A stretch of DNA of 64,000 bases from a virus (IMGVR_UViG_3300030503_000212:38493-102492); one strand, 5' to 3'. Numbered from the stretch's first letter, positions 1 to 63,428 are shown. Notes: generated by a model from the letters alone, not told the origin. Made by a program: numbers and translations.

Positions 1-1398
1 GATAAGGCAGTTCTTGCGCATAAGCGCATCACAATAAAGTTGCAGGAGCTGAATCGTCAGGCCGGAGATAATGCTGCCTTGCTGGGAGCTGCGCGAAATA
101 CTGTTGAATTGCACACAGCGAGTATCGAACGGTCCAAAAAGGCTAGGGTAGCAGCAAAAATCGAATTAGCTACACGCCAATCAGCTCTTAGCGTCGCCCA
201 AGATGGCTATAACAAGGCCGTGGAGAGTCTTGCTGTACTGCGGGAGCAGGTAACAGCGGCTACGGATGCGCTGAACGCAGGTGAACGGGAGAAAGCCGTT
301 ACAATAGCCCAGCTAGGGGCATGCCGGACTGAGATTAAGGCTTTGGGTACGGGCCGATGTGGTGCTTGTGATCGTCCGTTTGATAACGAAAAAATCGTGG
401 CACGCCGTAAGCGCGAGCTGGCAGCACAAGAAACTGAATGGCTAGAGAGCCTAGCCAGTTCTGACAAGGCAATCAATATCAGTCAGGCTACGATCAGTAA
501 TAATACGATTCAGATCAAAAAGTTCGAGGCAACAATAAGTACGTACGAAAGTTTGCAGCGTCACGTGCAAAACGCCACAACTGCATTAGAGTCTGTGGGG
601 ATTGGTGTTGACGTTGATACTCTGACCGCAGAGATTGCTGATGCTCAAGAAAATCTTAGTCTGTGCCGAGATCGGGGTAATGCTTTGAACTTGGAAATTG
701 AGCAGGCCCAAGAGTTGTTGCCAACATACCAGGAGCAGTTGACGATTTATACAAGACTTACAGCAGCTAAAGATGTCGAGGTCGGACAGCTTGAGGATGG
801 TCGGGTTCGTGAGCGAGCGGCGCAGGCTCGTTATGATCGGGCAGCATCGGACAAGGTTACGGTAAAAGCAACTGTCGAACGTTTGACTGGGGAGTATGAT
901 GCAGCACAAAGTCAGTTGTCATTGCTAACCAGGGCCGTAGAGTGTTTGGATCGTACAGGCATACCAGCATATCTGTGTGCCATGTTGTGCCCCATGTTGA
1001 CGAAAGCAGCTGAGGAGTATGCCAAGTTGTTTGCTGACGATGCATTGCAGATCGTGTTTGAATTCGTGGATGGTGAATTCGACAGCAAGATTATCAACGG
1101 ACAGGGCAGCAGCACGATGGAGGGGCTCTCTACGGGCGAGAAAGCCACTGCGTCACTGATTACAGCGTTTGCTCTCCGGTCAGCAGCACCTAAGACAAAT
1201 CTGTTGGTTTTGGACGAACCGGGCCGGGGACTAGACGAGCTTGGGCAACGTAAGTTTGCTGAGGCACTGGCGACACTCAAGGATAGCTTTGAGACTATTC
1301 TGGTGTCGACACATGATATTGCGTTTGCTGATTCATTATCAGCCGATGTTACACTTACTGTTGTAAAGGAAAATCGGATATCGAGGATTGAACAATGA
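1..1398 (+). CDS. SbcC/Rad50/T4 gp46-like recombination ATPase, C-terminal part (5' truncated)
   Basis: Frame 1 is open from base 1; long coiled coil, zinc-hook CGAC, ABC signature LSTGE, Walker B LLVLDEP, H-loop STHD. Confidence 0.88.
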   Translation, partial: DKAVLAHKRITIKLQELNRQAGDNAALLGAARNTVELHTASIERSKKARVAAKIELATRQSALSVAQDGYNKAVESLAVLREQVTAATDALNAGEREKAVTIAQLGACRTEIKALGTGRCGACDRPFDNEKIVARRKRELAAQETEWLESLASSDKAINISQATISNNTIQIKKFEATISTYESLQRHVQNATTALESVGIGVDVDTLTAEIADAQENLSLCRDRGNALNLEIEQAQELLPTYQEQLTIYTRLTAAKDVEVGQLEDGRVRERAAQARYDRAASDKVTVKATVERLTGEYDAAQSQLSLLTRAVECLDRTGIPAYLCAMLCPMLTKAAEEYAKLFADDALQIVFEFVDGEFDSKIINGQGSSTMEGLSTGEKATASLITAFALRSAAPKTNLLVLDEPGRGLDELGQRKFAEALATLKDSFETILVSTHDIAFADSLSADVTLTVVKENRISRIEQ

Positions 1399-1832
1399 GC
1401 AGCGCAAGACGTAAAGCCATAGTGCAGGAGTTGAGGGAACAGGGGCGTGCTGCATATGCAGCTGGTAAACGATACCAGCGTTGTCCACATCAATTCATGG
1501 ACAAGAGCCAATGGCAGCAAGGCTGGTTGGATGCCGAGGCAGAATACAACGCACAGCACGAAATGGCTGAGGCATCTGCTCAATTTGTGTTGCCTGCAAA
1601 GTATGAGCGCAAGCATCTACATCGGAAACGTGAGTATTACCGTGAGTATGTATGGAAAATCTACTACCGAATTCCAGATAAGAAATATGACGAGGACGAT
1701 ATCAATGCGGAAATTGCACTTGGTTATGAGGAGATTAAGTTCTCTGGGGAGGATGCTGAGGCTTTGTCATTAGCTGTGTATGAGGTGATGCTGAGGACTG
1801 TGAGTGATGCAACACAAATTCAAAATTCGTAA
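1395..1832 (+). CDS. hypothetical protein with N-terminal Rmf/CrpP-like motif
   Basis: 4-nt overlap with upstream stop; GRAAYAAGKRYQRCPH...WQQGW matches the G-x-x-A-x-x-x-G...CP...W-x-x-GW pattern. Confidence 0.6.
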   Translation: MSSARRKAIVQELREQGRAAYAAGKRYQRCPHQFMDKSQWQQGWLDAEAEYNAQHEMAEASAQFVLPAKYERKHLHRKREYYREYVWKIYYRIPDKKYDEDDINAEIALGYEEIKFSGEDAEALSLAVYEVMLRTVSDATQIQNS

Positions 1833-2154
1833 ACGTGTCGGATACGTGTACTCTTTACGAATAGGCGGTAGAGTACCACGCGCCATATATGTTTATTGGC
1901 AACTTTCGTACGGATCTTACGTTTGTCATAGTGATACATTTCAACAATGTTTGGCTCGTATGGAGCAAATAGTAGGAGCTGTACTGGACGGTAGGATTTC
2001 ATTTTTGGAGGTAGGGTGTCATGGGTGTTGGATTCCCAGCAACGTTGCGACTGCACGAGTTCGGACACAAGATTTATCAAGCGTTTGGCCGTTGGCCCTA
2101 TCACGTAGGATCGTCCGTCATGTTAAAGACTGGCTGGCGAGATGTCGACGTTAG
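1804..2154 (+). CDS. hypothetical protein (doubtful 3' part)
   Basis: Fills the gap between neighbours but overlaps the next ORF by about 130 nt. Confidence 0.3.
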   Translation: MMQHKFKIRKRVGYVYSLRIGGRVPRAIYVYWQLSYGSYVCHSDTFQQCLARMEQIVGAVLDGRISFLEVGCHGCWIPSNVATARVRTQDLSSVWPLALSRRIVRHVKDWLARCRR

Positions 2155-2515
2155 GCTGATGCTTGAGGATGAGCTGTATGAGTCGATGGGCTTAGGCAAT
2201 CCCAAGCGGCCTCAGAATAACGCCAAATGGTGTGCCTTATGCCAAGCGTTCAGTTCCTGGGGCCGTGAGATCACAGGACTCCCCATTGATTTCCAGATCC
2301 AGCAACTCTCGCTCGCCAATAAAGAGGAGGGTGAGAATGTTCGGAGTTTTCTGGGTTTGATACCAGAAAAGATTGATGAGGAGGCTGCTGCCCGTATAGA
2401 TGCAACACCCGGGAAATATCAGATACTGGCTGATATGCATGAGGCTGGTTGTCCCTATGCAAATGGTTCGTCGCAGGGAAATGTACACGGACCAGTGAGT
2501 GAGCATTCGTCATGA
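2021..2515 (+). CDS. minimal Pol-beta-superfamily nucleotidyltransferase-like protein
   Basis: YHVGSS...WRDVDVRLML (hGS...DxD) plus later IDFQ strand; GGAGG-like RBS upstream. Confidence 0.65.
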   Translation: MGVGFPATLRLHEFGHKIYQAFGRWPYHVGSSVMLKTGWRDVDVRLMLEDELYESMGLGNPKRPQNNAKWCALCQAFSSWGREITGLPIDFQIQQLSLANKEEGENVRSFLGLIPEKIDEEAAARIDATPGKYQILADMHEAGCPYANGSSQGNVHGPVSEHSS

Positions 2516-2706
2516 GTAAGTTGATACAGGATGAGGCCCGGGAGTTGATCGCATTTTACGATGCTCAGGGATGGGATTGGTCATCAGCTCTTGGGTTCCT
2601 GTTGACGCAACGTCTAGGAGTTACTATTGCATGGTTGAGGCCAGACGGGCGACCGATTGGCTGGAAACAGCCCCGGAGATCCAGAAAGAGTTGCATCAGG
2701 GCATAA
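2512..2706 (+). CDS. small hypothetical protein
   Basis: ATGA overlap with upstream gene. Confidence 0.5.
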   Translation: MSKLIQDEARELIAFYDAQGWDWSSALGFLLTQRLGVTIAWLRPDGRPIGWKQPRRSRKSCIRA

Positions 2707-2755
2707 GAATGTTCTATCGTGGCCCACAGCAATAAACTGTGAGGTGGACGCAACA

Positions 2756-3778: not shown

Positions 3779-3814
3779 GAGAGCCTCCGCTCTGCACGAG
3801 ATATGGCGGTTGAC

Positions 3815-4075: not shown

Positions 4076-4089
4076 AAGGATCTCCTGGG

Positions 4090-4287
4090 TTAGTATTTGA
4101 TTGGTTCGATGCGAACTTTTGAACCTTTGCCGAGCCCGTTGCCCTTGGTGTCAAACAAATAACCATTGACTCGGATACGACCGTTACTGGTAATGTTGCT
4201 GATAATGGCCTCTCCGAATGTCGTAGGTGTACGGTAGATGACAAGATCAGCCACGTTAACCTTAGTGCCTTTCAATGTTGACGACAT
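4090..4287 (-). CDS. small beta-rich hypothetical protein
   Basis: MSSTLKGTKVNVADLVIY... from ATG 4287 with GGAGG upstream. Confidence 0.5.
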   Translation of the reverse strand: MSSTLKGTKVNVADLVIYRTPTTFGEAIISNITSNGRIRVNGYLFDTKGNGLGKGSKVRIEPIKY

Positions 4288-4558
4288 AAGAATCCTCCAC
4301 CTCATCCAACTCCACATATTCAGCTGCATCTGCCAACATATCCTCAGAGATGCCAGCAGATTCAAAATTGACTTTCTGTTGTGCGATATGTTCATCCAGC
4401 CAGTGATGCGCCGGAGCTTGCAGGGCTTCGCAAGCTGCGATCTCTCGATTACATTCGAGGAGATCATCGAAATCACATTGAAGAGCCACGCCTCGTCTGC
4501 TTTTGGATAAGATTACTTCGCGCCGGGCAATCCAGTCTGGAAGTTTCATATCTATCAC
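4262..4558 (-). CDS. hypothetical protein
   Basis: GAGGTGA RBS; starts just downstream of a motif copy at 4579. Confidence 0.55.
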   Translation of the reverse strand: MIDMKLPDWIARREVILSKSRRGVALQCDFDDLLECNREIAACEALQAPAHHWLDEHIAQQKVNFESAGISEDMLADAAEYVELDEVEDSYVVNIERH

Positions 4559-4577
4559 CTCAATAGTAATTGGATGC

Positions 4578-4847
4578 TCAACTTACTGTTGACGATTCAA
4601 CGATGTCCTCAAGCCCCTCAAAACCGATGCACTGAAAATATGTTGCCAGCTGGGACAGGGTGAACGTTACAGTCGTTCTTGTGCGTCGAACAATGAACAG
4701 CCGAAGATCAGCCTCTCGCGAGATGCAGCGGAGTGTGTCGTCAGGTTTGATGATGGCTGTACCCGTTTTTAGGACAGATTTGGAGTTCTTAAGCCGAATC
4801 AGGTATCCAGGTGCGATAGTAGCGGCGAAGATTCTGGGAGCTGACAT
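4578..4847 (-). CDS. hypothetical protein
   Basis: GGAGG RBS; stop codon lies inside the palindromic motif at 4578-4591. Confidence 0.55.
   Translation of the reverse strand: MSAPRIFAATIAPGYLIRLKNSKSVLKTGTAIIKPDDTLRCISREADLRLFIVRRTRTTVTFTLSQLATYFQCIGFEGLEDIVESSTVS
4579..4591. promoter_or_regulatory. palindromic motif CAACTTACTGTTG (exact copies also at 5485, 7139, 7428, 34637; variants at 33985, 36782, 44198)
   Basis: Read directly; the best copies lie 10-45 bp upstream of start codons. Confidence 0.75.
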
Positions 4848-5269: not shown

Positions 5270-5272
5270 AGA

Positions 5273-5464
5273 TCACTCACCCGAAAAGTATGGTGATAAT
5301 GCAGCCGGGGAATTGCCCAGAACAGCGTCTACCATGTGCCCAGCAGCAATGTTCAGGGCGATGTTATAGGAATGTACACGGCCAGCTTTGAGATGAGTCT
5401 TAGCGATGTACAGGAATTGGCGGGCGTATTCGTACGCGGTTATAGACTTGACAGGCATAATCAC
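5273..5464 (-). CDS. small hypothetical protein
   Basis: GAGGTGA RBS; motif copy at 5485 upstream. Confidence 0.5.
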   Translation of the reverse strand: MIMPVKSITAYEYARQFLYIAKTHLKAGRVHSYNIALNIAAGHMVDAVLGNSPAALSPYFSGE

Positions 5465-5548
5465 CTCGTATCTATGAGATGTGTCAACAGTAAGTTGGGA
5501 TGCAATAGAGTTTAGGCGCTCTATAATCTTGGTGAAAGGGGATTACAA

Positions 5549-6557: not shown

Positions 6558-7124
6558 TCACCGCAGTACCTTGCGCGATGGCCATTGATTGAAAAGTTTT
6601 CCGAGTTTGGATACGTTGACAATTTGTTGCGTTTTCCAAGACTGGACCGTTCCATCAGGCAGTTCGACGTTCAGAATGCTGTAGCTCCAGACGTGATCTC
6701 CGCGAAGGATAGCAGTTTTTACGTTGCCAATTTTGGTGATGAGCTTTTTGATGAATGAGTCATACTGAGCGGCGGCGTCCTCCTCCGCATACCGGATGAA
6801 CTTTGCAATGCGCTCTTGGCTGACGTCAGCATAATGTGGCTCGTGCATTCGGTAGCTGCTTTGCCGCCATTCACACAAGCCAGAAAACAGCTTGTACTTA
6901 TTGTGTGCTTCGTGCCACTTGAAATCGCTTAGGGCTTGGGTGCTTGGGTAGGGAGCGGCGATATTCAAATCGTTACCAGCTTGTTCTAGTTCTGCCGTGA
7001 CTTCAGCAATGATTTTGAGAGCCTCGATCTTGGCACGTTTTACAGCCTCGACCCGGAGCGGGAGAACAGCGATGGCAACCGGGTGGGTAGCGTCGTATTC
7101 GAGTTTGTTGATTGGCTGTTTCAT
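6558..7124 (-). CDS. phage hypothetical protein
   Basis: 188-aa clean ORF; motif copy 7139-7151 just upstream. Confidence 0.7.
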   Translation of the reverse strand: MKQPINKLEYDATHPVAIAVLPLRVEAVKRAKIEALKIIAEVTAELEQAGNDLNIAAPYPSTQALSDFKWHEAHNKYKLFSGLCEWRQSSYRMHEPHYADVSQERIAKFIRYAEEDAAAQYDSFIKKLITKIGNVKTAILRGDHVWSYSILNVELPDGTVQSWKTQQIVNVSKLGKLFNQWPSRKVLR

Positions 7125-7156
7125 ACTTATTTGATGTTCAACTTACTGTTGACGAC

Positions 7157-7399
7157 TCAATTTTCGATAATTTCTCCACAAACGTCAAAGCCATGAGCCG
7201 AGCGCTGGGCAGACTGGAACGCTATAGCTGCTTTTTTCGTTTTGAAAGCGCGTGCTCCAGCTTTTTGGACAAAGATCGTGGGCGCGTCAATGCTCGAAGT
7301 ATCGCCAGACGCGGACATTACGACGAGATGTCCGATACTTGTTTCAACGTCTCGATTGAGCATAACGGAATACTTTGCACGTGCCATTTGGAACCTCAT
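7157..7399 (-). CDS. small hypothetical protein
   Basis: GAGGT RBS; flanked on both sides by motif copies. Confidence 0.55.
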   Translation of the reverse strand: MRFQMARAKYSVMLNRDVETSIGHLVVMSASGDTSSIDAPTIFVQKAGARAFKTKKAAIAFQSAQRSAHGFDVCGEIIEN

Positions 7400-7453
7400 T
7401 TCTCAGCTACACGTATTTGATGCTCGTCAACAGTAAGTTGATTCTAGACAAAG

Positions 7454-7490: not shown

Positions 7491-8621
7491 TTAGAACGAT
7501 TCAAGCAGTTTGGCAGCAGCGTTATCGATTTTGACCCGCTCGTCGCCGTACTGAGTTTCTTGTGACGCCCGGGTCAAACCTTGGACCGTACCCCACACGC
7601 TGTGTGGGTTGCCGTCAGTAGACTCGTTCTCAGCAGCCAGCTCGTAACCGCGAGCGATGAGCTTTTGTGAGACCTGACCCCGGAGCCGTTTGAACACCTC
7701 ATCAAGCACCTCATCCTTGGTCCCACCCAGGATCGTGTTCTGGGCTGATACGATTTTGGCCTCATCCTCGGATGCCGATTCATTGGCATACTTGGTGAGT
7801 TCAGCGCTGAATGATTGGAACCGTCTGCGGATGTCTCCGACGTGGCGCAGGCTTAGCTTGGCAACGTCCTTAGCACCCCAGACTATATGATTCGAGCAAA
7901 CGAACCGGTAGAGGAAAGTGGTGATCTTGAGAGCACCAGCGCCAACCTCTGAGTTCGAGACAAAGAACCCGCGTCCAAGTCCGGCATTGTTGCCCTTTTC
8001 GGCAAGCCGGTAGTTATTGTTGACGAGGAAAGCGAACAGGTCGTGATCGGACACGTAGATGGTTTTCTCGTGTTCGCCGTTCGACTCTCCCCAGACGGGA
8101 CGGTCAGCGTGTTCGAATGCCACTGGAGTATCCCAGCCTGCATCTTTGAACGCCAACAGTCTTTCAAACACCTCATGATTCCAGATCCGCTCATAACGGT
8201 CTGAGGTGATGGCCCGGATAACCTGCTTGCCATTGCTGTGAGCCAGAATGTTGACCGACCCGTTTTCGGGATTGGGGTTGTTGGCGGTCCCGAACTTAGC
8301 AGCAAGGCCGTGGTTGAGGTTCTGGACTGCCAAGGTGGCCGGAAGCTCCCTGAGGTAGCCAGCAGGAGCACCAATGCGGCTTGCAAGCTGCCCAAAGGCG
8401 AAGTGTGTAAGGTCTGTGGGGATGCCACCACGACCGACAAGTTTTACCTCGTCGTCAATGGCTTGAGCACGAATCGTCGAAGGATCGATGTCCTTACGTT
8501 CGGCTGAGTTGTGGGCATAATGAAGGGCTTGATCGTATGCCGTCTGGATGTCGTTGTAACGTTCATCAGCGGGGCGATTCGCCCATTGGCGGGATGCTGC
8601 AAAGAGTTCCATACTGTTCAC
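7491..8621 (-). CDS. DUF932-family protein
   Basis: RAITSDRYERIWNHEV, YVSDHDLFAFL, GFFVSNSEVGAG, FLYRFVCSNHIVWG, WGTVQGLTR motifs typical of DUF932-like phage proteins. Confidence 0.75.
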   Translation of the reverse strand: MNSMELFAASRQWANRPADERYNDIQTAYDQALHYAHNSAERKDIDPSTIRAQAIDDEVKLVGRGGIPTDLTHFAFGQLASRIGAPAGYLRELPATLAVQNLNHGLAAKFGTANNPNPENGSVNILAHSNGKQVIRAITSDRYERIWNHEVFERLLAFKDAGWDTPVAFEHADRPVWGESNGEHEKTIYVSDHDLFAFLVNNNYRLAEKGNNAGLGRGFFVSNSEVGAGALKITTFLYRFVCSNHIVWGAKDVAKLSLRHVGDIRRRFQSFSAELTKYANESASEDEAKIVSAQNTILGGTKDEVLDEVFKRLRGQVSQKLIARGYELAAENESTDGNPHSVWGTVQGLTRASQETQYGDERVKIDNAAAKLLESF

Positions 8622-8710: not shown

Positions 8711-9034
8711 TTAGACGTGATTCTGTATAAACCCAATGAATTCCAGATCCGTAGCAGGATCAGCAAACGCAACACCGTTGGGCAAGTGATAGAGCTTGCT
8801 GGCTTTGAGCACGACCACTACACCATTCGAGGTGTGGATGATGAGATCGCCTTTGAAATGTTCACCACCTTGAGCAAACAAAGCGTTTTGGAGAACGTAG
8901 ACGTGTCTATGGGGCTTGTCGTGCGATCTACTGCATTCCGTACCAATGATGACGTTGTCAATCTGGAGCACGTGCTCAGCAGCCTCACTAATTTTCAGGT
9001 GGGTTACGGTTTTGAATGACATATGAACCTCCAA
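8711..9034 (-). CDS. hypothetical protein
   Basis: First gene of the leftward block, next to the divergent junction. Confidence 0.55.
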   Translation of the reverse strand: MEVHMSFKTVTHLKISEAAEHVLQIDNVIIGTECSRSHDKPHRHVYVLQNALFAQGGEHFKGDLIIHTSNGVVVVLKASKLYHLPNGVAFADPATDLEFIGFIQNHV

Positions 9035-9065
9035 TCAGTCAGATGCTTTCGATGGGAGAAGGACT

Positions 9066-9097
9066 CAACATAAAGTTGAATCGTCAACAATAAGTTG
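9066..9097. promoter_or_regulatory. tandem palindromic sites (CAAC-N5-GTTG x2) in the divergent intergenic region
   Basis: caacataaagttg 9066-9078 and caacaataagttg 9085-9097 between leftward and rightward gene blocks. Confidence 0.7.
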
Positions 9098-9117
9098 AGC
9101 ATCTAATTGGGGGTGAG

Positions 9118-9330
9118 GTGCTTATGTCACGTCAGAAAGCTGTTAAAGTTACGGTCAGCAAATATCATGTTGACACATACAAGCTAAAACTTACGTGTGG
9201 TTGTGAGTACACTGTTCACACGTCGAAAGAGGCGGCAGAGGCTTTCAGTGACGCTGGTTTCGAATGCAAGCGTTGCCCAGTTTCTATTGAAACTGTTGGC
9301 ACCCATCCAATACATAAAGTTTATAGGTGA
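9118..9330 (+). CDS. small zinc-ribbon protein
   Basis: TCGC...CKRC; GGGGGTGAGG RBS. Confidence 0.55.
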   Translation: MLMSRQKAVKVTVSKYHVDTYKLKLTCGCEYTVHTSKEAAEAFSDAGFECKRCPVSIETVGTHPIHKVYR

Positions 9331-14484: not shown

Positions 14485-14955
14485 GTGAGCTATTCAGATC
14501 GTGCGAAAGCGTCGTACTCAAGAGTAAGTCGTGACTTGATGTTGCGTGCGTCGATTTCCGAAAGTGTGTTGGCAGAGGCGTTACGAGGTCGTGTGACTCC
14601 AGCAGCATCGCCGTTCGATATTATTATTGACGACATTAGTGTGGCTATTGAGCTTAAGGTGCTAGTGAGTTCAGCCCGTGAGGGCCAAGTGTTCGTCAAC
14701 AAACATGCTATGGGTCGCAAACAACAGTATCTCGTTGAGCGTGGGATGCAGCCATTCATGATAGCGATTGATTACAGAGCGGGTGAACCTGCGTATTACA
14801 TTCGTGAGGGTGTGGCATCGTATAGACTTAAAAACATGCAGCGTTGCAAGAGTCCACGAGCGATGAGGATGTACCTCAATCGTTATGTCAGGGCTACTGC
14901 AATGGCTCTAGAGATAGCCACAGGTGCTCAGAATGCCGCGTTCAATGATGCCTAG
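14485..14955 (+). CDS. PD-(D/E)xK nuclease-fold protein (paralog of 62147..62515)
   Basis: SPFDII...IELK catalytic pattern. Confidence 0.7.
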   Translation: MSYSDRAKASYSRVSRDLMLRASISESVLAEALRGRVTPAASPFDIIIDDISVAIELKVLVSSAREGQVFVNKHAMGRKQQYLVERGMQPFMIAIDYRAGEPAYYIREGVASYRLKNMQRCKSPRAMRMYLNRYVRATAMALEIATGAQNAAFNDA

Positions 14956-16354
14956 TGAGGTTCCCAAGCCCACACCCCTCTACGATCAGCAGCCTAGTAG
15001 GGATAACGAGTTCGCCAAAATTCTTAGGGACAAGAAAGCACGCATCAAGCACACCTCGGAACAGCCAGCAAATTTCTTTGAGAATCGTCCTACGCCCGGC
15101 GTAACAGCTGGTGGGCCGGGATCTGGTCGTTATCCTAAAGGTTCGCATCAAGATATTGGTGAGACTCTCAGCAAAAAGATTGGCAAGAACTGGGATGGTG
15201 CCGTTAAGTATTACAACAGTATTCCGAATACGGACGGCGGGCGAATCCTAAATACGGATGAGGCACGAGAACTATCGTCAGCCTATCGCGCTGACCGTAC
15301 GCGTTCTGCCGAGGTACACGAACCTGCCAGTCAGTTCATTAAGGATCTGTACGCACACAAGCTCTCACAACCCACGCCTGCCGGGTATAAGCCAGTCGTG
15401 CTGTTTACAGCGGGTGGTACCGGAGCTGGTAAATCAGTATCGTTGCGGGCTGCTGATCCGCAGGACTTAGCCAGTAAAGCTGAAATCGTTTACGACACAA
15501 ATATGAACAATGTGCCGTCTGCAACCGCCAAAATCAATCAGGCTTTGTCTGCTGGACGCAACGTCCGTATCGCATACACCTACCGAGATCCGGTTGAGGC
15601 TATGACGGGTGGGGCGCTGCCCCGGGCAATGCGGATGGGGAGAACCGTTCCACTTGCAGAGCACATCAAAACCCATGTGGGAGCTTATGCAACAGTAAGT
15701 TCATTACAAAAGATTTATGCGGACAACCCGAATGTGCAGTTTCGGTTGTTCGATAATTCGCGTGGTCCGGGCAATGCTGCACAGGTACTTACTGTTGACG
15801 ATCTGCCCAAAATGGCAGATAATGGACTCGAAGGGAGACTACATGAAGCACTTAATCAAGCACGAACCTCCGGGCGAATCTCGGAGGCCGTCTACCAAGG
15901 AACCCTCGGAAAAGGACTGGGGCGAGCAGTTGGTAGCCAATCTGAATCGAAACGTGTTAGCGGAGCAAGAGCAGGAACAGCACGAAGCTCAACAGTAAGT
16001 GCTGGCGGTCCAGGTTCAGGACGCTATCCCAAGGGTTCTGGTAAGCAGAATGGCCCGGTCGGTCGTGCTCCAGCAGGCCGTGACAGCGGAGGAGTACGAG
16101 ACGGGGCCGGTGGGTCGGATCTTTATCGGGATCGGCGGATTCAAGCCGCCTATCAGGTAAAACCAGATCAGGCATCATTGGCACGTCTGATGGGTCCAGG
16201 TTGTTACCGTGTTGTTGGAGACCAACTCCTGACGGTTACAAAACATGCTGGCTTGGCTCGTTCGTTTGCAGACCGTATGGCGACCGGTGCCCAAATAGTT
16301 CAGGTGTACAACGGTGAGGGTAGGGTTATCTATGCAAAGGGTGGTGGAATCTGA
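14924..16354 (+). CDS. zeta-toxin-like P-loop kinase flanked by two AGGPGSGRYPKGS motifs
   Basis: VLFTAGGTGAGKS Walker A, IVYDTN, YTYRDP...RAMRMGRTVP. Confidence 0.8.
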   Translation: MLRMPRSMMPSEVPKPTPLYDQQPSRDNEFAKILRDKKARIKHTSEQPANFFENRPTPGVTAGGPGSGRYPKGSHQDIGETLSKKIGKNWDGAVKYYNSIPNTDGGRILNTDEARELSSAYRADRTRSAEVHEPASQFIKDLYAHKLSQPTPAGYKPVVLFTAGGTGAGKSVSLRAADPQDLASKAEIVYDTNMNNVPSATAKINQALSAGRNVRIAYTYRDPVEAMTGGALPRAMRMGRTVPLAEHIKTHVGAYATVSSLQKIYADNPNVQFRLFDNSRGPGNAAQVLTVDDLPKMADNGLEGRLHEALNQARTSGRISEAVYQGTLGKGLGRAVGSQSESKRVSGARAGTARSSTVSAGGPGSGRYPKGSGKQNGPVGRAPAGRDSGGVRDGAGGSDLYRDRRIQAAYQVKPDQASLARLMGPGCYRVVGDQLLTVTKHAGLARSFADRMATGAQIVQVYNGEGRVIYAKGGGI

Positions 16355-16602
16355 TGATCGATCTTAAGGATACGGAGACTGCTGTTCAATCGGAATATGG
16401 TTGGTTACTGGACAACGGCTTGTTGTGCATCGGCCTTGGCTCGTGCAGCATGGTGGATTGGGTAACGTATACCGATGAGAATGCCATTCGATTTGCTCGC
16501 GCCCAAGATGCGGTGAATATGCGATCAGCGCTTAGAGGCGTCAACATGGGAATCTCTATGATGATGGATCGGTGTAAGCCGGTGGAGCATGCTTGGGGCT
16601 AG
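16354..16602 (+). CDS. hypothetical protein
   Basis: TGATG coupling to upstream stop. Confidence 0.55.
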   Translation: MIDLKDTETAVQSEYGWLLDNGLLCIGLGSCSMVDWVTYTDENAIRFARAQDAVNMRSALRGVNMGISMMMDRCKPVEHAWG

Positions 16603-16674
16603 TCAACGATATTTCGTGACACCAGAATCTCGCTTGTGGTATTTGTATTGCAGCGCGGTGAAAGGAACACCCCC

Positions 16675-17160
16675 ATGAATCTTGAACAGACATTGAGCCT
16701 ACAAGCAGCGAAAAAGGCTCCTGAGGGTGACGGAGAGCCCGGACCCGGACACAAGATTTTCAATGGTTTCTTTGTTAAGGTTGAGCACCCAGCAGGCAGT
16801 GTACGCACTGGGATCGCTCCCGATGGTCAGACATGGGCCGTACGAATGGCTAATGACTACGGTGAGCTCCCAGGCTCGATTGGGAGCGACGGAGATCCGG
16901 TGGATGCCTATCTAGGTCCCCACAATGATGCTAAACTCGTACACGTCATCCATATGCATGATCCTGACGGGGCATATAACGAGGACAAAGCCATGATCGG
17001 GTTCAAGGGCCAGAAGTCTGCTATCGCCGCGTTTCGTAAGCATTATGCGCCGGGCGTAGCCAAAATCGGGGCTATTACATCACATACTGTTGCTGGTTTT
17101 CGTAAGCAAGTGCGACTGTCGAAAAAGGCAGGCGGCAAAAAGCTACACGCAACTTACTAA
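16675..17160 (+). CDS. inorganic pyrophosphatase-like (InPase) phage domain protein
   Basis: VEHPAGSVRTG, DYGELPGSIGSDGDPVDAYLG, NEDKAMIGF; RBS AAAGGA before ATG 16675. Confidence 0.85.
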   Translation: MNLEQTLSLQAAKKAPEGDGEPGPGHKIFNGFFVKVEHPAGSVRTGIAPDGQTWAVRMANDYGELPGSIGSDGDPVDAYLGPHNDAKLVHVIHMHDPDGAYNEDKAMIGFKGQKSAIAAFRKHYAPGVAKIGAITSHTVAGFRKQVRLSKKAGGKKLHATY

Positions 17161-26522: not shown

Positions 26523-27029
26523 ATGGATATCAAGTTGTCCGGTACAACACCCGGATCATTGTCAGGCAGCGGTGGTACAGCAGGATTCGTACCACTCGAC
26601 AACACGAATACAGAGGTAATTTCAAACGAAAGTGCTAAGTTTGCCTCCGGAGCCAAACGCAGTGAGATCAAGCCGTCATTTCACCTGATTCCACCTGAGG
26701 CCAAAGAACGGCTTGCCATCAGATATACGATGGGAGCTGAAAAGTACGGTATGCTCAACTATTTGGTGGGCATCAACGATCCAGCATTTGTTCGTCAGCT
26801 CATCGATCATCTTGAGGACCATCTTGAGGATTTCAAGATCAACGGATGTCTTACGGACGATAATCTGGCGGCAATTATGTGGGCTGCTGCTACGCTGATC
26901 GTGGTTGAGACCTACAATCCGACCATTCTTACGGAGGGGATTTTTGCTCCGCGCCGGAAAGTTATTGCTGACGCCCTGGCAGCAGCCCGCGCTCCGCAAA
27001 ACCTGTTTGAGGGAAAGCCCAAAACGTAG
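26523..27029 (+). CDS. dATP/dGTP diphosphohydrolase-like (DUF5664) protein
   Basis: GAKR...FHLIPP...GAEKYG..NY..G...DHL..HL...DNLAAIMW. Confidence 0.8.
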   Translation: MDIKLSGTTPGSLSGSGGTAGFVPLDNTNTEVISNESAKFASGAKRSEIKPSFHLIPPEAKERLAIRYTMGAEKYGMLNYLVGINDPAFVRQLIDHLEDHLEDFKINGCLTDDNLAAIMWAAATLIVVETYNPTILTEGIFAPRRKVIADALAAARAPQNLFEGKPKT

Positions 27030-31263: not shown

Positions 31264-31875
31264 ATGAATAACGACGAACTGCGTCAACTCATTCCGAACT
31301 ATCCGCGCATTGTCATCGAACGGCTACCCCGTACACAAGAGGTCGGCGGGATTGTGTTGACGGATGATAACAACAAGCCGCTGCATGAGGGCATTGTTAT
31401 CAGAACATGGGCTCCGTGGACTAAGCAGATATCTGCTAGTGCTCTAGATGCACAGGACTTGGCAGTCCTTATTTCGACCATGAAAACTGAGCTGCGGTCT
31501 ACAGGTGGTGAATACGACCACCTGTACCGAGAGGGTGTAAAACTTTGTCTTGATAACTTGGGTCGTGTCCGGAAATCTATAGCGATGGAGTCTCAAGTCA
31601 AGCCCGGCGATCATGTAGTGTTTCCCCACTGGGCTCCAAAGACTGATGACACTGCTGAGAAAATTGTGGTCGTCAATGAATTCGAGATCACGGGTAGCGT
31701 ACATCCTGATCCTGAGACGTTACACAAGAAACTTATTTCAGTGCTGGTGGGATACACAGGAGATGATGCCGAGACTGTTGAATCTTTAGCACAAGCTGTT
31801 GAGGAGCATTTCGTCATCGTTCCCAAGCTCTCTATCACACGGTCGGGATCGGGTAATCGAGCAGACTGGGAATAA
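31264..31875 (+). CDS. groES: GroES-like co-chaperonin with large insertion
   Basis: PRIVIER...EVGGIVLTD...EGIVI...VKPGDHVVF...VNEFEITG. Confidence 0.8.
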   Translation: MNNDELRQLIPNYPRIVIERLPRTQEVGGIVLTDDNNKPLHEGIVIRTWAPWTKQISASALDAQDLAVLISTMKTELRSTGGEYDHLYREGVKLCLDNLGRVRKSIAMESQVKPGDHVVFPHWAPKTDDTAEKIVVVNEFEITGSVHPDPETLHKKLISVLVGYTGDDAETVESLAQAVEEHFVIVPKLSITRSGSGNRADWE

Positions 31876-33972: not shown

Positions 33973-34023
33973 GGGCTTGAATCCTAACTTACTGTTGAAT
34001 CATCCTATGTGCGGAGGTGGTAT

Positions 34024-34434
34024 ATGAACGGATTTTCAAGGAATACGGTGATGTTTGTGTTGCTTTTCGGAGTAGCTTTTGGGTTGGCTGTCCCAGTGCT
34101 ATCGGTCAAGATTGCCGGAAAGACTGTTGTATCAAAGACATCGGCTCAGTATGCATATGAACCTGATCTCAAGCCGACCGACGAGCAGATCACGGATTGT
34201 CAAGCGTCACTAGAGACCTTACAGGAATGGCTGTTTAGGGATGCGGCTAAGGCTGGCGGTGCCGCTAGTCAGATTACGTTTGACAATCTGAGTCGCAACA
34301 ACAGTATTTTTATCGAGGGGTATGTGGCTGTAGGAGAACGGCGTCCAGGCGCGTTTGCGAATTACTGCGACAAGTCCAAGCTGGACAGCTCAATCGAGAC
34401 GCTTGCTCAGTTGGCGAATCGAAACTACTATTGA
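34024..34434 (+). CDS. secreted or membrane-anchored hypothetical protein
   Basis: N-terminal signal/TM; GGAGGTGG RBS. Confidence 0.6.
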   Translation: MNGFSRNTVMFVLLFGVAFGLAVPVLSVKIAGKTVVSKTSAQYAYEPDLKPTDEQITDCQASLETLQEWLFRDAAKAGGAASQITFDNLSRNNSIFIEGYVAVGERRPGAFANYCDKSKLDSSIETLAQLANRNYY

Positions 34435-34676
34435 CGCATCTTATACGTAGCGGTTTGGATATCGGCGAAAAATGTAGTAGCCGATGGAAACGCATGACAA
34501 TGTACGGCGATGCCGGGGAGGTATCCATATGCGCCTGTAGTCCAAGCAAAATTTGAAAGTAAAAGCCAGTAACGGCTATAGATATGCATTGGGACGACCG
34601 GGCAGAGATGTCCGGTTTTCCCGTTAAGGTGAATCTCAACTTACTGTTGAGCATCAAATAAGGTGTGAGGTGATGT

Positions 34677-34847
34677 ATGACACGCGAATTTGCAATATAT
34701 GAGGCACGGCGTCGGACCAACGTCCTAAAAAGGACGCACTTTGTGGTGCATGTTGTCACAAGCACAGATCCAGATAGTGCTTTTATCGTGGTTGATCGTC
34801 CAATCCCCGGTTATGAGCCCGTAGATGTAGCTGTCTATGGGGAGTAA
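34677..34847 (+). CDS. 56-aa small protein (not in ORF track)
   Basis: GAGGTGA RBS; motif copy at 34637 upstream. Confidence 0.5.
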   Translation: MTREFAIYEARRRTNVLKRTHFVVHVVTSTDPDSAFIVVDRPIPGYEPVDVAVYGE

Positions 34848-35667: not shown

Positions 35668-36159
35668 ATGGCAGATCAAAAGAAAGTCGTTCGTTGGCAC
35701 AGTGCAATGGGTAAACTTGCATCTGACGTTCTCCCCAAGACCAATATACCGTTACAGCCTGCGCATAGTGTCTTGGAAAAGGCTCATGCGTTTATGGCTC
35801 CGTTCGTTAAAAAGCTGTCGACAAATACCGGCGACGCAAGTATTGCAATTACTGTTGAGTACGAGGAAAAGAACCGTGCGGGTGGTTTTATAGCATCCCT
35901 CCAAAAACAAGCAGTAAGCATTAGCGACCGTCTGTCAGCGGACCCAGCTTACAGCACCGATCCATTTCGCCCCGCTCCGCGTGACGTTGTGCGACACTCT
36001 ACGGATTTGCCGTGTCCCACATGTAAAGCTGTAGCTGGGATTGGATGTGGTCCGGACGCTACGATTATTGTTCATGGCAACGGCTACACATTGGAGGACA
36101 CAATCAAGATTCATGAATCCCGGGCTCGTTTGTTCAGTCTGTATGCCAGTCTCGTTTAG
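35668..36159 (+). CDS. hypothetical protein with CPTC...C...H..R zinc finger
   Basis: LPCPTCKA..G.GC...IHESR. Confidence 0.6.
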   Translation: MADQKKVVRWHSAMGKLASDVLPKTNIPLQPAHSVLEKAHAFMAPFVKKLSTNTGDASIAITVEYEEKNRAGGFIASLQKQAVSISDRLSADPAYSTDPFRPAPRDVVRHSTDLPCPTCKAVAGIGCGPDATIIVHGNGYTLEDTIKIHESRARLFSLYASLV

Positions 36160-39557: not shown

Positions 39558-41555
39558 GTGTTTACGTTACTCAAACGACTGCATCAGGCTTTCACCTCTC
39601 GCGTTACGGCGTATTTCCGTAAGCGTGAGATTGTGCGTGTGCTGAGAGCAACGCACATGGTGGAGCTGGCACAGACGCCGGTGCATCGACATCCCCAGCT
39701 CATAGCTCAACAGCGCCATGAAATTGAGGGAATACGAGCTGGGAAACTACCACTCGTGAATCGCCGGACATTAGCCAATACAGGCTTGCCGATCACGTTC
39801 ACACGCATCAATGCTCCGGTAGCAAAACAAACTCCGTTATCGATGCGCCGATTCTCCCGCACGCCAGTACCATCACGGGCGATCAATCTAGTTAAGGCAG
39901 GCTTGCTTGGATTGAATTGGGAGATCCGGGCGATTGAGGGTAAGGCTAATCCTGATAATCCGGATGTCAAGGCTCGCATCAATATTGCGACCGACTGCAT
40001 GAACAAGCCGAACGATGACGATTCGTTTCGCACGTGGATCGAACAGGTGCTCAACGACTATCTGATCTTTGGTATGGGTTGCACTGAAACCCAGGCGAAT
40101 CCATTTGACAATCGTCCTGTCAAAATGTGGGCCGTTGACGGCAACACTATTCAGATTGTTGGTCAATGGAAAGAGTCTGAGAAAGACATTCTGCCGCGTT
40201 ACGTGCAGCAGCTCCCCTACACGACAGCCACGAATCAAGGTGTGATGCTGTTCGATGACGAGTTGATGTGTATTCGTGACAACATCGCTACAGACTCACC
40301 ATTTGGTTTTGGATGCTTAGAGATTGCCTATAAGTGCATTGCGGATTTGTTAGGAGCTCAACGTCAGGCGGGTAACGCAGCGTCGGACCAGCTGGGCAGG
40401 AGTATTTTCTGGTGGTCTGGAGCTGTAGCCCCGCAGGCAATGACGGATCTGCGCGATTACATCCAAGGTGAGCTTGAGGGTGCAGCTCGTTTGGGTATGA
40501 TTGGCGGTGCTCCCAAGCCCGATCTGATCGAGACGAATCCAACGCAACCCAATGACTTACTGTTGCCGTGGCATGAAATGCTAATCCGGATGATTGGCAA
40601 CTCATTCAATCTGTCTGGTATGGCGTTGGGTATCGAGCGCGATGTCAACAGAAATACAGGCGAAGTTCTTGATGACAAGGATTTTCGCTCAGCAGTAGTT
40701 CCGGTAGCCAAGCGTTTCCAAGAGGCGATTACACGTCGCATTATTCACGTCAAAATGGGTTGGGATGACCTTGAGCTTGTGTTCAAGGGTACCGAAGATC
40801 CTGACATGGAAACGAAGCTCGCTATCCAGCAGGCACGGTATCAGGCAAATGCTATGACTGGGAACGACATGAATGTAGAGATGGGCTATAAGAAAATCGA
40901 CAGCCCATTTGCAGACATCACGAGCATTGAGTGCCAATTCTTGATGGCCTACATCGCCAAGCTGCCTGCTCAGGTCAATCCTAATGCGCCACCAATGCTC
41001 CCAGGCGGGCCGGGACAGCCTCCAATGGGACAGCCTCCAATGGGCCAGCCTGCTCCCGGTGGAGGTGGATTCAAGCCCAAGCCGCCTGTGGGCGTTAAAC
41101 AGCTCAGTCTGCCTAAGCCCGGACCTCTCAAGCTGCCTATGAGTGCGAATGAATTGCTGGGAATGAACAAGACGTATCTGCGAGCACTACAGTACGCCAG
41201 TGTGTTGCCGAAATCGTCTATCGTTCTGGCTGATGCAATGGAGGCCGATCAGCCCGGTGTGCTCAAGGAACTTTCTGATGAGGTGTGGGACTATTTCGAG
41301 GAGTTGGCAGAGCGCGAGATCGACAAGAGTAAGTCGCGTAAGGCTACGCTCAGTAAAAAGTGGACGGACTTGGCTAAAAAGCGTTATGGTAGGGATGCAA
41401 AGCGGTATAAGAATCTCCACGAGCATGGTGGGTTCTTTGGATTACCGTTGAGCAGTGCTGCTGCATCCTCTCCCGTGAAAGCTCCCCGTAAAGTTGGCAA
41501 TCGTCAACAAATTGGTGGGCGTCAAAAGAAAGTCAAAACGGGATTGAGGTACTAA
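39558..41555 (+). CDS. portal protein with Pro-rich and basic C-terminal extension
   Basis: Position before protease/capsid; NKPNDDDSFRTWIEQVLNDYLIFGMG, VDGNTI, FGFGCLE portal-like motifs. Confidence 0.88.
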   Translation: MFTLLKRLHQAFTSRVTAYFRKREIVRVLRATHMVELAQTPVHRHPQLIAQQRHEIEGIRAGKLPLVNRRTLANTGLPITFTRINAPVAKQTPLSMRRFSRTPVPSRAINLVKAGLLGLNWEIRAIEGKANPDNPDVKARINIATDCMNKPNDDDSFRTWIEQVLNDYLIFGMGCTETQANPFDNRPVKMWAVDGNTIQIVGQWKESEKDILPRYVQQLPYTTATNQGVMLFDDELMCIRDNIATDSPFGFGCLEIAYKCIADLLGAQRQAGNAASDQLGRSIFWWSGAVAPQAMTDLRDYIQGELEGAARLGMIGGAPKPDLIETNPTQPNDLLLPWHEMLIRMIGNSFNLSGMALGIERDVNRNTGEVLDDKDFRSAVVPVAKRFQEAITRRIIHVKMGWDDLELVFKGTEDPDMETKLAIQQARYQANAMTGNDMNVEMGYKKIDSPFADITSIECQFLMAYIAKLPAQVNPNAPPMLPGGPGQPPMGQPPMGQPAPGGGGFKPKPPVGVKQLSLPKPGPLKLPMSANELLGMNKTYLRALQYASVLPKSSIVLADAMEADQPGVLKELSDEVWDYFEELAEREIDKSKSRKATLSKKWTDLAKKRYGRDAKRYKNLHEHGGFFGLPLSSAAASSPVKAPRKVGNRQQIGGRQKKVKTGLRY

Positions 41556-43062: not shown

Positions 43063-43128
43063 TATCCCACTACTCTTACTTGTGAACTTTCTGTTGTAAG
43101 CAACACAAATTCGAGAAAGGTGGGATAC
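43062..43128 (+). promoter_or_regulatory. structured intergenic leader of the capsid gene
   Basis: GTATCCCAC (43062-70) pairs with GTGGGATAC (43120-28) over the RBS; inner TGTTG-TAAG-CAACA hairpin. Confidence 0.5.
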
Positions 43129-61683: not shown

Positions 61684-61955
61684 TCGGAATTGGCTGCATC
61701 ATCGGAATCGTCATTACTCTTTGGATCATAAATAGGGGCATGAAAGCTCAACAGAAAGTAAAAGCCCAAACACATACAGTATTGGTATCAACAGAGCAAT
61801 ATGTGTTCGGAAACATTATTGCCGATGAGGCTACTCGTAGAGCTGATATCTACTTAGATTTCATACAAAAGAATTTAGCAGAACAAGGCTTAGATCACTC
61901 ACAAGTAAATGCGATCATAAATCGACTCGATGAAATAGTGTTGAGCAAGAAATGA
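61680..61955 (+). CDS. single-TM small protein
   Basis: N-terminal TM; ATGA overlap. Confidence 0.6.
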   Translation: MIGIGCIIGIVITLWIINRGMKAQQKVKAQTHTVLVSTEQYVFGNIIADEATRRADIYLDFIQKNLAEQGLDHSQVNAIINRLDEIVLSKK

Positions 61956-62146
61956 TGGGTAGAAAATAGCCAAAACATTGAGGTTTTACGCACTCACAAA
62001 CATTCAATCAGTTAGTAGTAAGGACCGCCCATTTTTACCCCATATTACTGTTGATTTTCACCTCGTTCTGGCATGCCCATTTAGAACGACTTACTACTGA
62101 CAAAACGCGATAAATTTTACTCAATAACAAGTGAGGAATTTCGGCA

Positions 62147-62515
62147 ATGGATACATACGGAACAGAGGCAAAACTAGCACCTATTTTACGAGCCCGTACA
62201 ACAACAACTCATGCCCCTTTTGACCTATTGTCTGAGCGATGGCCAGCTGTAATCGAGGTCAAGACGTATAAAGGCAAAAGCCAACAGGTAATCATGAACA
62301 AACGTGCTCGTGAGCGTAAACAACAGTATGTCGAGGCTCACGGTGTCCAATCGTTTACAGTTGTCGTTCAACACGTCGGTACCCGTATTCGCTATTATGT
62401 GTGTGAGGGTTTCGGAGGTTTCTCCATCCCAGGGATGACCGAGGTAAAGACTCCAGCAGCTATCAGACGCTACATCGATGGGAGAATGGAGCATTATGGC
62501 TATCAACCTAACTGA
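62147..62515 (+). CDS. PD-(D/E)xK nuclease-fold protein (paralog of 14485..14955)
   Basis: APFDLL...IEVK...NKRARERKQQY...YYVCEG. Confidence 0.7.
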   Translation: MDTYGTEAKLAPILRARTTTTHAPFDLLSERWPAVIEVKTYKGKSQQVIMNKRARERKQQYVEAHGVQSFTVVVQHVGTRIRYYVCEGFGGFSIPGMTEVKTPAAIRRYIDGRMEHYGYQPN

Positions 62516-63056
62516 TGTGCTCCAAAAGCTGGATGCACGGTCTCAGCGGGACTTGGCACGATCCTCAATGTTGGTCGTCAAGACTATCTCAGCACAAGTA
62601 AGTCAACAGATTAGGCTCTCTGAGACGGACAAAATACGCTGCCTCAGATGGCTCACATGGGCAAGACGCCACGCAGTTCCACTTTCTTATGTAATCCGTA
62701 AAGCCTTTGAGTGGGGTGAAGGTACAACCTCCAAATCCCAGAGATTGAAACGGAAAGCTACGTTGTTCCCGATATCGCTGGCGGCTATGACTGGCTCTAT
62801 GTGCTACGAGTGGCTCGTGGAGGAGATTGGCAAGGACTGGGACAATCGGCCTGTCACCGAGGCCCTCAGGCAAAAGATGCTCAATAGCGTTTTGGTATCA
62901 CCTGCCGCGAGCCAAGGCAAACTGTTGGACTTTGCTACGATTGACGCTTTTGCAGACGACTATTCAGAACATGTACGGCTTCGGCGTAAAGCTCGTGAAA
63001 GCGCTGAATTACTGTTGAGCAAGTCAAAACCATTTCGTGGGAATCCATTTAGATAA
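62496..63056 (+). CDS. hypothetical protein
   Basis: GGAG RBS before ATG 62496. Confidence 0.65.
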   Translation: MAINLTDVLQKLDARSQRDLARSSMLVVKTISAQVSQQIRLSETDKIRCLRWLTWARRHAVPLSYVIRKAFEWGEGTTSKSQRLKRKATLFPISLAAMTGSMCYEWLVEEIGKDWDNRPVTEALRQKMLNSVLVSPAASQGKLLDFATIDAFADDYSEHVRLRRKARESAELLLSKSKPFRGNPFR

Positions 63057-63089
63057 ACTGGCTATAATCTGTTGTGAGGTGGTTCTACG

Positions 63090-63428
63090 ATGTATTACGC
63101 ATACTTACTGTTGTTGCTGTTCGCCGGTCATGCGCTCTGCGACTATCCGTTGCAGGGCGACTTTTTGTCTAAGGCCAAAAACCACAAGTCCCCGATTCCC
63201 GGCGTCCCGTTCTGGCAGGCACTGACGGCGCACAGTCTGATACACATGGGCATGGTCCTGCTGATTACAAACAGTATTGAGCTGGCTATAGCGGAGTTCA
63301 TCGTTCATTGGGTTACAGACTACTCAAAGTGTGGTGGCTTGATCTCATACAACCAAGATCAGTTCATTCACTATTTTTCCAAGGTGCTTTGGATCAGCAT
63401 CCTGTATACGGCGGTGAGACATGGCTGA
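63090..63428 (+). CDS. DUF3307-family membrane protein
   Basis: GHALCDYPLQGDFL..AK, HSLIH, HWVTDYSKC, DQFIH. Confidence 0.85.
   Translation: MYYAYLLLLLFAGHALCDYPLQGDFLSKAKNHKSPIPGVPFWQALTAHSLIHMGMVLLITNSIELAIAEFIVHWVTDYSKCGGLISYNQDQFIHYFSKVLWISILYTAVRHG

Follow-up and report, generated by a model that had tools for sequence, protein, structure and literature searches.

A 12-base word repeated every ~420 bp in an uncultured peat phage, a predicted recognition site of a phage-encoded DNA-binding protein

Why would a phage carry the same short word hundreds of times, inside its genes as well as between them, and what reads it? The question is raised by a 64,000-nucleotide stretch of DNA (the window), bases 38493-102492 of the 107,763-bp IMG/VR virus record IMGVR_UViG_3300030503_000212, which represents an uncultured phage of ~108 kb from peat with a G+C content (GC) of 49.8%. 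An earlier note, made from the window's sequence, had described a dispersed, over-represented DNA motif and had suggested that a sequence-specific protein coats or organizes the genome through it. We find that selection at the DNA level maintains this motif, an asymmetric 12-mer, on both strands and across a clade of phages of differing GC.

The core of the motif is even more abundant than the earlier note had supposed from its count of about 50 copies where about 2 are expected. The window contains 55 copies of TACTGTTG/CAACAGTA (32 on the plus and 23 on the minus strand), including every example position that had been listed, against 2.14 ± 1.65, with a maximum of 11, in 100 dinucleotide-preserving shuffles of the window. 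When k-mers of the whole 107,763-bp genome were ranked without bias, the top words at each k from 6 to 12 were sub-words of one motif. Aligned copies define it as the asymmetric 12-mer ACTT[A/T]CTGTTG[A/C] (word ACTTWCTGTTGA, with TACTGTTG as its core), in which A1, T4, T7, T10, and G11 are near invariant and outside of which no base is conserved. We define a site as a hit of an iterated weight matrix at 12 bits or more, and counts refer to the 107.6-kb genome unless the window is named. By this definition there are 256 sites (~2.4 per kb, or one per ~420 bp), whereas second-order Markov simulations give 5.4; with the threshold raised to 16 bits, the counts are 111 and 0.4, respectively. Sites with at most two mismatches to ACTTACTGTTGA number 170, whereas order-1, order-3, and order-5 Markov simulations gave 8, 15, and 33, respectively; the fifth-order model absorbs part of the motif and still yields only 33.

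The constraint extends into the genes. Coding DNA carries 177 sites, compared with 14.4 ± 3.3 after shuffling of synonymous codons and 5.6 after shuffling of codon order. Because both shuffles lose sites, codon choice and amino-acid order have both been bent to carry the 12-mer. The enrichment thus survives the codon-preserving shuffle and the fifth-order Markov model that had been proposed as controls, and the synonymous-codon result bears out the claim that the constraint is on DNA rather than protein.

To describe how the sites lie, we considered their strand, frame, spacing, and symmetry. The two strands are balanced (138 plus, 118 minus), as are the orientations within genes (100 sense, 87 antisense; p = 0.38), in agreement with the mixed orientation reported earlier, and between genes (32 with the gene, 37 against). 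No polarity of orientation along the genome, of the KOPS or Chi kind, was seen. Because the sites point equally in both directions, they are not stoperators of the L5 type. Within genes all three frames are used, as had been stated, but unevenly: 74/24/2 for sense-strand sites and 41/20/26 for antisense sites. The commonest sense reading, xxA-CTT-ACT-GTT-GAx, encodes Leu-Thr-Val-Glu/Asp, and one frame is closed by a TGA stop. Coding sites are Poisson-distributed (variance/mean ~1), and their largest gaps match random expectation; a regular, priming-type spacing, considered for a variance/mean of 0.33 in 5-kb bins, was rejected because the under-dispersion vanishes for coding sites. Although 73% of the 256 sites are intragenic, intergenic DNA, which is 14% of the genome, holds 27% of the sites and almost half of the top-scoring ones, and 51 of the 89 intergenic regions (57%) hold at least one.

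The symmetry of the site differs from what had been proposed. The earlier note took TCAAC-N5-GTTGA as the full form of the motif and pictured full palindromes at gene junctions with half-sites in coding DNA. We found instead that the left arm of the dyad is not generally conserved, that true dyads account for 8 of the 256 sites (3%), and that the same asymmetric 12-mer is conserved in coding and non-coding DNA. Seven of the eight strict dyads fall in the window, six of these at window 4.5-9.1 kb (the leftward gene block and its divergent borders), and the shorter CAAC-N5-GTTG occurs 14 times in the window where 1.15 are expected. The variant palindromes that had been listed at 9066, 9085, 33985, 36782, 44198, 21090, and 17150 are all weight-matrix sites, but those at 33985, 36782, 21090, and 17150 are not true dyads.

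That the strongest sites lie at gene junctions, on the other hand, was correct. Site centers are 4.3-fold enriched 20-40 bp upstream of start codons, above an already high background and in both orientations, and sites directed against the gene typically abut the Shine-Dalgarno sequence. At ~14-16 intergenic positions, 25-50 bp upstream of start codons, the 12-mer is embedded in a composite, G[A/C]ATC-N2-3-[12-mer]-N1-4-CATC-NN-AT(A). A strict pattern for this composite matches 9 times in the genome, compared with 0.2 times in simulations, and recurs in the relatives L126, L132, L134 (four times), and L136; intergenic instances of GMATC-N16-17-CATC nearly always contain the 12-mer. The composite accounts for ~6% of sites, and the other ~240 have no fixed flanks. 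With two short elements 16-18 bp apart and the 12-mer filling the spacer, it resembles a promoter of the alternative-sigma type that carries an operator within its spacer. A sigma-70 promoter with the TTGAC of the word as its -35 element was also considered and rejected, as there is no -10 element at 16-19 bp. The array and its individual members, in window coordinates, are as follows.

96..63114, both strands (81 plus, 66 minus): site array of 147 12-mers at 12 bits or more, of which 28 are intergenic, 61 coding-sense, and 58 coding-antisense; it continues through the rest of the 107.6-kb genome.
4578..4592, symmetric: full dyad TCAACTTACTGTTGA, followed in its minus-strand reading by GCATCC-AAT, ~30 bp upstream of the leftward gene 4262-4549.
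5484..5503, minus strand: composite GCATC-CCA-ACTTACTGTTGA-CA-CATC-TC-ATAGAT, 25 bp upstream of the leftward gene 5273-5458, in a divergent intergenic region.
7138..7152, symmetric: full dyad TCAACTTACTGTTGA between the leftward genes 6558-7124 and 7157-7387.
7427..7444, minus strand: dyad and composite GAATC-A-ACTTACTGTTGA-CGAG-CATC-AA-ATA, upstream of the leftward gene 7157-7387.
9065..9098, symmetric: two dyad-type sites, TCAACATAAAGTTGA and TCAACAATAAGTTGA, 19 bp apart in the divergent region between genes 8711-9022 (minus) and 9124-9330 (plus); the second is followed by GCATC-TA-AT.
33979..34010, plus strand: composite TTGAATC-CTA-ACTTACTGTTGA-AT-CATC-CT-ATG, 25 bp upstream of gene 34024-34434, just past the large terminase gene.
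34631..34665, plus strand: composite TGAATC-TCA-ACTTACTGTTGA-G-CATC-AA-ATAAGG, upstream of the small open reading frame 34677-34847.
35668-36159, plus strand: gene for a 163-amino acid protein, the second candidate reader, which weakly matches PF24623, a phage zinc finger of putative DNA-binding function.
40555..40566, plus strand: site in the portal gene, encoding the family-invariant DLLLPW.
43086..43111, both strands (43086 plus, 43100 minus): inverted site pair at the scaffold-capsid junction.

Is the word peculiar to this genome? Portal homologs define a family of ~75-130-kb uncultured phages, in which the 12-mer occurs at 1.3 per kb in L123 (60% portal identity), 0.7 per kb in L125 (53%), and 1.9 per kb in L126 (49%). 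Over these three and the further contigs L132, L134, and L136, the range is 0.7-3.2 per kb at a GC of 52-62%; L126 has a GC of 62%, so that an AT-rich word is even less expected there. The 12-mer is missing from relatives with 36-47% portal identity, among them four complete genomes of 107-125 kb, save for a copy in the portal gene. We considered that portal-gene copy (40555..40566) as a conserved site and set it aside: it is kept in motif-less relatives too, and since it encodes DLLLPW, its persistence reflects conservation of the protein and is not evidence of site conservation. In comparison with L123 (65% nucleotide identity), 2-3 of ~10 coding sites are common to both genomes and new ones lie elsewhere, whereas several junction sites are kept, among them the plus-strand copy at 43086. 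Position is thus partly conserved at junctions and mostly not in coding DNA. Because coding sites are Poisson-spread and turn over between relatives, what is kept is density and not position, and the 12-mer is a trait of one subclade, held within genes as a density. Near-identical copies of the phage itself are 99.6-99.99% identical.

An exact 15-mer scan of IMG/VR gave single chance matches only, and exact-peptide searches for the portal in IMG/VR and for the ParB-like protein described below in metagenome contigs returned nothing or the phage itself. A scan of IMG/VR for the tandem-pair pattern found unrelated low-GC contigs only; the same pattern in 185,579 species genomes matched only tandem repeats within Thr/Ser/Glu-rich genes and gave no clue to the host. 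Separately, the distant relative G002 (IMGVR_UViG_3300048503_000032; L154-L159), which lacks the 12-mer, has 12-20 copies per 107 kb of a different 20-bp repeat, ~GCATCCCTGAGGTTGGCACC, which is probably the promoter or operator of that lineage.

What, then, could read the word? A sequence-specific DNA-binding protein, as the earlier note had suggested, is the most economical reading of the array, and we scanned ~115 phage proteins for DNA binders. The sole clear sequence-specific binder among them is a 281-amino acid orphan ParB/KorB-like protein with a ParB-CTPase fold and a helix-turn-helix (HTH) DNA-binding domain, encoded at genome 11259-12104, 26 kb upstream of the window. The report of no obvious HTH regulator therefore holds within the window, where we found the weak zinc-finger candidate listed above, but not beyond it. 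The ParB-like protein scores 28.5 bits against the Pfam family ParB_N (cut-off 26.3) and 24.4 bits against KorB (cut-off 22.3), matches the PHROG 'ParB-like partition protein' (phrog_1033) with E = 9e-40, and has Spo0J and Noc as its top sequence matches in the PDB. Its AlphaFold model (predicted local distance difference test, pLDDT, 85) retrieves ParB, Noc, and KorB in Foldseek with E = 1e-8 to 1e-9. The N-terminal ParA-binding motif (L/F/I)G(K/R)G(L/F/I) is absent from it.

The position of the sites suggests a link between this protein and the word. Three direct tandem 12-mers lie 37-68 bp before its gene, the last of them in a composite; no other upstream region in the genome has such a triplet. 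Orthologs are found in only four further lineages, on short contigs, at 82, 49, 47, and 44% identity; all of these loci (L132, L134, L136, and L315) have the word 40-50 bp upstream of the gene, usually in tandem, and the 44% ortholog has two variant tandem copies that spell A[G/C]ATTTTGTTGC. The contigs with orthologs carry the word at 1.2-3.2 per kb, and the motif-less relatives are without a ParB homolog. The copies before the gene and its orthologs are consistent with autoregulation. Besides these upstream sites, a conserved hairpin, GAGCC-GTGGAGG-GCTCC (genome 11225-11258 and the homologous places in L132, L134, and L136), holds the Shine-Dalgarno sequence of the gene in its loop, which suggests translational control. 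The zinc-finger protein has homologs in the motif-bearing L125 and L126 and none in the motif-less G002, G003, and L137. Taken together, these patterns are suggestive, although not decisive, of the ParB-like protein as the lead candidate and the zinc-finger protein as a second, weaker one. A 302-amino acid protein assigned to PHROG 6247 ('DNA topoisomerase') was rejected as a specific candidate because it resembles TopoVI-A only weakly in fold and its family is very widespread.

We therefore favor, with a probability of about 0.45, the reading that a sequence-specific DNA-binding protein encoded by the phage recognizes the 12-mer all along the chromosome, with the ParB-like protein as lead candidate. 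Under this proposal, binding at the composite sites would control a class of promoters, including that of the candidate reader itself. The ~190 intragenic copies would be additional places at which the protein is loaded or retained, so that it stays concentrated on phage DNA or spreads along it, with silencing, protection, or compaction as the result. If it works as KorB and Noc do, the ParB-like protein may load at the sites as a clamp and then slide. KorB is known to load at dispersed OB sites, to slide, and to silence distant promoters (PMC11790492), and orphan ParB-like proteins are common in phages (PMC12704722).

Several observations weigh against this proposal. The cytidine triphosphate (CTP)-binding box II of the ParB-like protein reads GESRYRA, not GERRxRA, and no ParA-type ATPase was found among the scanned proteins. 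The link between protein and word is a co-occurrence in a few short, phylogenetically related contigs and is thus suggestive only: the loci that carry the gene are kin to each other and so are not independent, 96 of 136 genes share the same subclade restriction, and 57% of intergenic regions have a site in any case. Known sites of this protein class are palindromes of 13-16 bp that a dimer binds, present in ~12 copies for OB, 1-20 for parS, and 70 for NBS, that is, in 1 to ~70 copies per replicon and not as 256 asymmetric sites per 0.1 Mb. Sliding clamps give no reason for a site every 420 bp. Most small phage proteins have no recognizable fold, so another reader is quite possible. Finally, no comparable word was found at 27 IMG/VR phage loci whose ParB-like genes are more distant (24-43% identity), although a few have modest repeats of their own. 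Among contigs unrelated to this phage, L342 (IMGVR_UViG_3300047324_000018), whose ParB-like gene is 27% identical, has the palindrome GAAAGTACTTTC nine times in 15 kb, one of them before that gene.

A more specific form of the proposal is rather improbable on the present evidence: that this is a probably virulent phage in which sites for an orphan ParB-type clamp, placed every ~400 bp, allow the DNA to be coated or condensed and marked as 'self'. If it were true, the marking would provide genome-wide silencing, protection from nucleases or defense systems, or sequestration, and both this use of the ParB-CTPase fold and a viral 'identity word' would be undescribed so far.

The alternative that fares best, although we consider it unlikely, is that the word is the site of an enzymatic DNA transaction on both strands, such as lagging-strand priming, nuclease arrest at a Chi-like 'self' signal, recombination at hot spots, or site-specific nicking or cleavage. 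Equal orientations, a random spread in coding DNA, and conservation of density rather than position are the statistical signature of Chi- and uptake-type words, and one site per ~840 bp per strand is near the size of Okazaki fragments. The phage also has machinery that such a role might use, with a DnaB-like helicase, a Toprim primase, RecA, an SbcCD fusion, a 5'-3' exonuclease, a HerA-like ATPase, and the TopoVI-A/Spo11-like Toprim protein; its primase shows no zinc-binding domain. However, primase and Chi words are 3-8 nucleotides long, not 12, the spacing is no more regular than chance with the largest gaps as random, and the Spo11-like protein comes from a huge family that is >50% conserved over many other phages. 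The core resembles the nick consensus TACT/RTGMC of phages tf and LUZ24: as in the nick sites of these phages and of T5, a TACTGT core is repeated and phage-specific, but those sites lie on one strand in 9-14 copies (known phage nick sites number ~10-15), and one extra base breaks the match (TACTGTTGA vs TACTGTGAC) (PMC3517423). The confinement to a single strand seen in tf, T5, and phiKMV is absent here, with 138 plus and 118 minus sites, and the genome contains opposed site pairs 14-22 bp apart, at which nicks would break the DNA. An enzymatic role also leaves unaccounted for the enrichment at gene starts and the composite architecture.

A further alternative is that the word is the core of a phage-specific promoter, read by a sigma-like factor or activator with the host RNA polymerase, the intragenic copies being cryptic or weak promoters that drive pervasive transcription. 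The ~14-16 sites in a conserved 30-35-bp composite 25-50 bp before start codons, with flanks GAATC ... CATC 16-18 bp apart that recall extracytoplasmic function (ECF) promoters, and the near-constant presence of the 12-mer wherever that flank geometry occurs between genes, both speak for it, as does a 608-amino acid protein with a weak match to sigma70 region 2 (E = 0.006). We nevertheless regard this explanation as improbable for the array as a whole. The flanks are on only ~6% of sites, and the rest have no conserved neighbors; half of the sites point against genes, among them many intergenic ones directly next to ribosome-binding sites; and the sigma match is below threshold and without a PHROG family, while no phage RNA polymerase was found. 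In T4 middle promoters, the -35 region is replaced by a MotA box, which lies a fixed distance upstream of a weak -10-like element. The composite subclass shares this arrangement, whereas MotA boxes are oriented and confined to promoters, unlike the 12-mer array.

It is less probable still that the array is a functionless by-product of a biased process (templated repair, biased gene conversion, or a mutational hot spot) or the target of a phage DNA methyltransferase. Positional turnover at constant density would fit a drive, but the sites are preferentially placed, and partly conserved, upstream of genes within a conserved composite. The phage has two or three methyltransferase genes, one of which adjoins the ParB-like gene here and in L136; this arrangement is not seen in L132 or L134. 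Methyltransferases recognize short targets, and there is no known cause for these to accumulate. Least probable of all is a generic chromosomal word of the host (uptake-, Chi-, or HIP1-like) that the phage shares, for although the word has the statistics of DNA uptake sequences (DUS) and uptake signal sequences (USS), at ~1 or more per kb on both strands with a frame bias and occasional inverted pairs, none of 1,203 sampled genomes has more than 12 copies of ACTTWCTGTTG, equal to the reversed control, at 2.4 per kb it is denser than known host words, and this AT-rich word is unchanged in relatives from 50% to 62% GC yet missing in distant members of the same family. Those genomes cover three large groups plausible for peat, namely the phylum to which a Bryobacteraceae metagenome-assembled genome (MAG) belongs and the classes of one alpha- and one gammaproteobacterial MAG; two of the genomes (G039 and G854) are unpublished, and the outcome does not depend on either.

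How does the array compare with systems already described? The stoperators of Cluster A mycobacteriophages (L5, Bxb1, TipsytheTRex) are likewise asymmetric, single-unit sites (13 bp) that occur genome-wide and throughout a clade, at promoters and short intergenic junctions; unlike the 12-mer, they number 20-35, lie between genes in nearly all cases, and point strictly in the direction of transcription, such that inversion abolishes their function (PMC9283540). The phage described here has 256 copies, 73% of them in genes, in equal orientations, and neither an immunity repressor nor an integrase was recognized among the scanned proteins. The KorB-OB system of plasmid RK2, ParB-parS, and Noc-NBS share with it an element-encoded HTH protein of the ParB fold and sites both near and far from promoters, also before the protein's own gene (PMC11790492). 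The ParB-like protein further resembles Noc and KorB as an orphan without ParA and a ParA-binding motif. It differs in that its putative word is asymmetric and far denser per kb, with palindromic dyads at only 8 of 256 sites. The 17-bp dyads TGTTCGG-N3-CCGAACA of Cluster O mycobacteriophages are also clade-specific, with >30 copies genome-wide between and inside genes and an unexplained function, but they are perfect dyads at ~0.5 per kb (PMC4351075), whereas the word here is asymmetric, at ~2.4 per kb, and has a promoter-like composite subclass. The closest statistical match is to bacterial uptake sequences: DUS/USS and Chi are 8-12-nucleotide words at ~1 per kb or more, on both strands, frame-biased, and conserved in density rather than position. 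They are, however, words of bacterial chromosomes read by uptake systems or RecBCD, whereas the 12-mer is a word of a phage clade and is not enriched in the 1,203 genomes. By these analogies, we would class the array with the dispersed binding sites of phages and plasmids, of which it is an extreme case in its density, asymmetry, and intragenic placement.

The density itself bears on function. Known dispersed sites of the repressor or ParB type number tens of copies per element and lie mostly between genes. The 12-mer is maintained at 2.4 per kb, with three quarters of the copies inside genes, at a visible cost to codon and amino-acid choice and across phages that range from 50% to 62% GC. Because the density is upheld despite this cost and the drift in GC, there is likely to be a strong, continuous benefit per unit length of DNA, a logic unlike classical operator control that suggests a protein or process reading the entire phage chromosome. 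If binding were confirmed, one of the many orphan ParB-like proteins of phages could be assigned a function (PMC12704722), and similar 'name-tag' words in uncultured phages would have a model.

The phage that carries the array recurs in peat metagenomes. The first 127 bases of the record recur as its last 127, which indicates a circular assembly, and CheckV estimates a completeness of 91%. Megablast against INPHARED gave no match, so the phage is without a close relative among sequenced phages. At 99.6-100% identity, the same phage is present in 24 or more metagenome runs from peat, as well as in several assemblies from ENA and Logan. Nearly all genes point rightward, with a single leftward block at window 3.8-9.0 kb. 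Recognized genes encode an HK97-type portal, large terminase, capsid, and large tail proteins; for replication, the helicase and primase named above, PolA with a domain like uracil-DNA glycosylase (UDG), a clamp, a clamp loader, and single-stranded DNA-binding protein (SSB); for recombination, RecA with an intein, the SbcCD fusion, and the 5'-3' exonuclease; and, in addition, methyltransferases, glycosyltransferases, and a zeta-like kinase with InPase.

Some of these genes merit a separate description. The zeta-toxin-like P-loop kinase (PF06414, E = 1e-8) and the InPase domain protein (PF18823, E = 6e-33) are separate, adjoining genes at window 14933-17160, and the domain matches agree with the earlier remark on this pair. 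The gene at window 31264-31875 encodes a 203-amino acid protein with a weak match to Cpn10 (GroES-like), and within it a 260-bp patch (31332-31595) holds 79 of the 81 differences of an otherwise 99.6% identical copy of the phage (L116); this is a hypervariable or recombined patch. At window 26523-27029 lies the gene for a 168-amino acid protein with a dATP/dGTP diphosphohydrolase N-terminal domain (PF18909, E = 7e-10), and an HD-domain protein is encoded at genome 102785-103264; together with the several glycosyltransferases, these could point to altered nucleotide pools or modified DNA. Three further features lie outside the window. The PHROG 6247 protein is encoded at genome 1491-2399 (E = 6e-108), with invariant YY and DHDPSG and a weak TopoVI-A/Spo11-like Toprim fold; it has no Pfam family and thousands of homologs that are >50% identical in uncultured phages. 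The RecA-like recombinase gene (genome 31582-33543) is split by an intein with an HNH endonuclease domain. At genome 8284-8712, on the plus strand (L129), we found a permuted, two-piece transfer-messenger RNA (tmRNA; Rfam RF04321, 56.7 bits against a gathering score of 47, with ARAGORN in agreement), which adjoins a tRNA-Asn gene (6906-6980) and a 103-nucleotide tRNA-like gene (7527-7629) in a gene-poor stretch of 2.5 kb and may hint at the host lineage.

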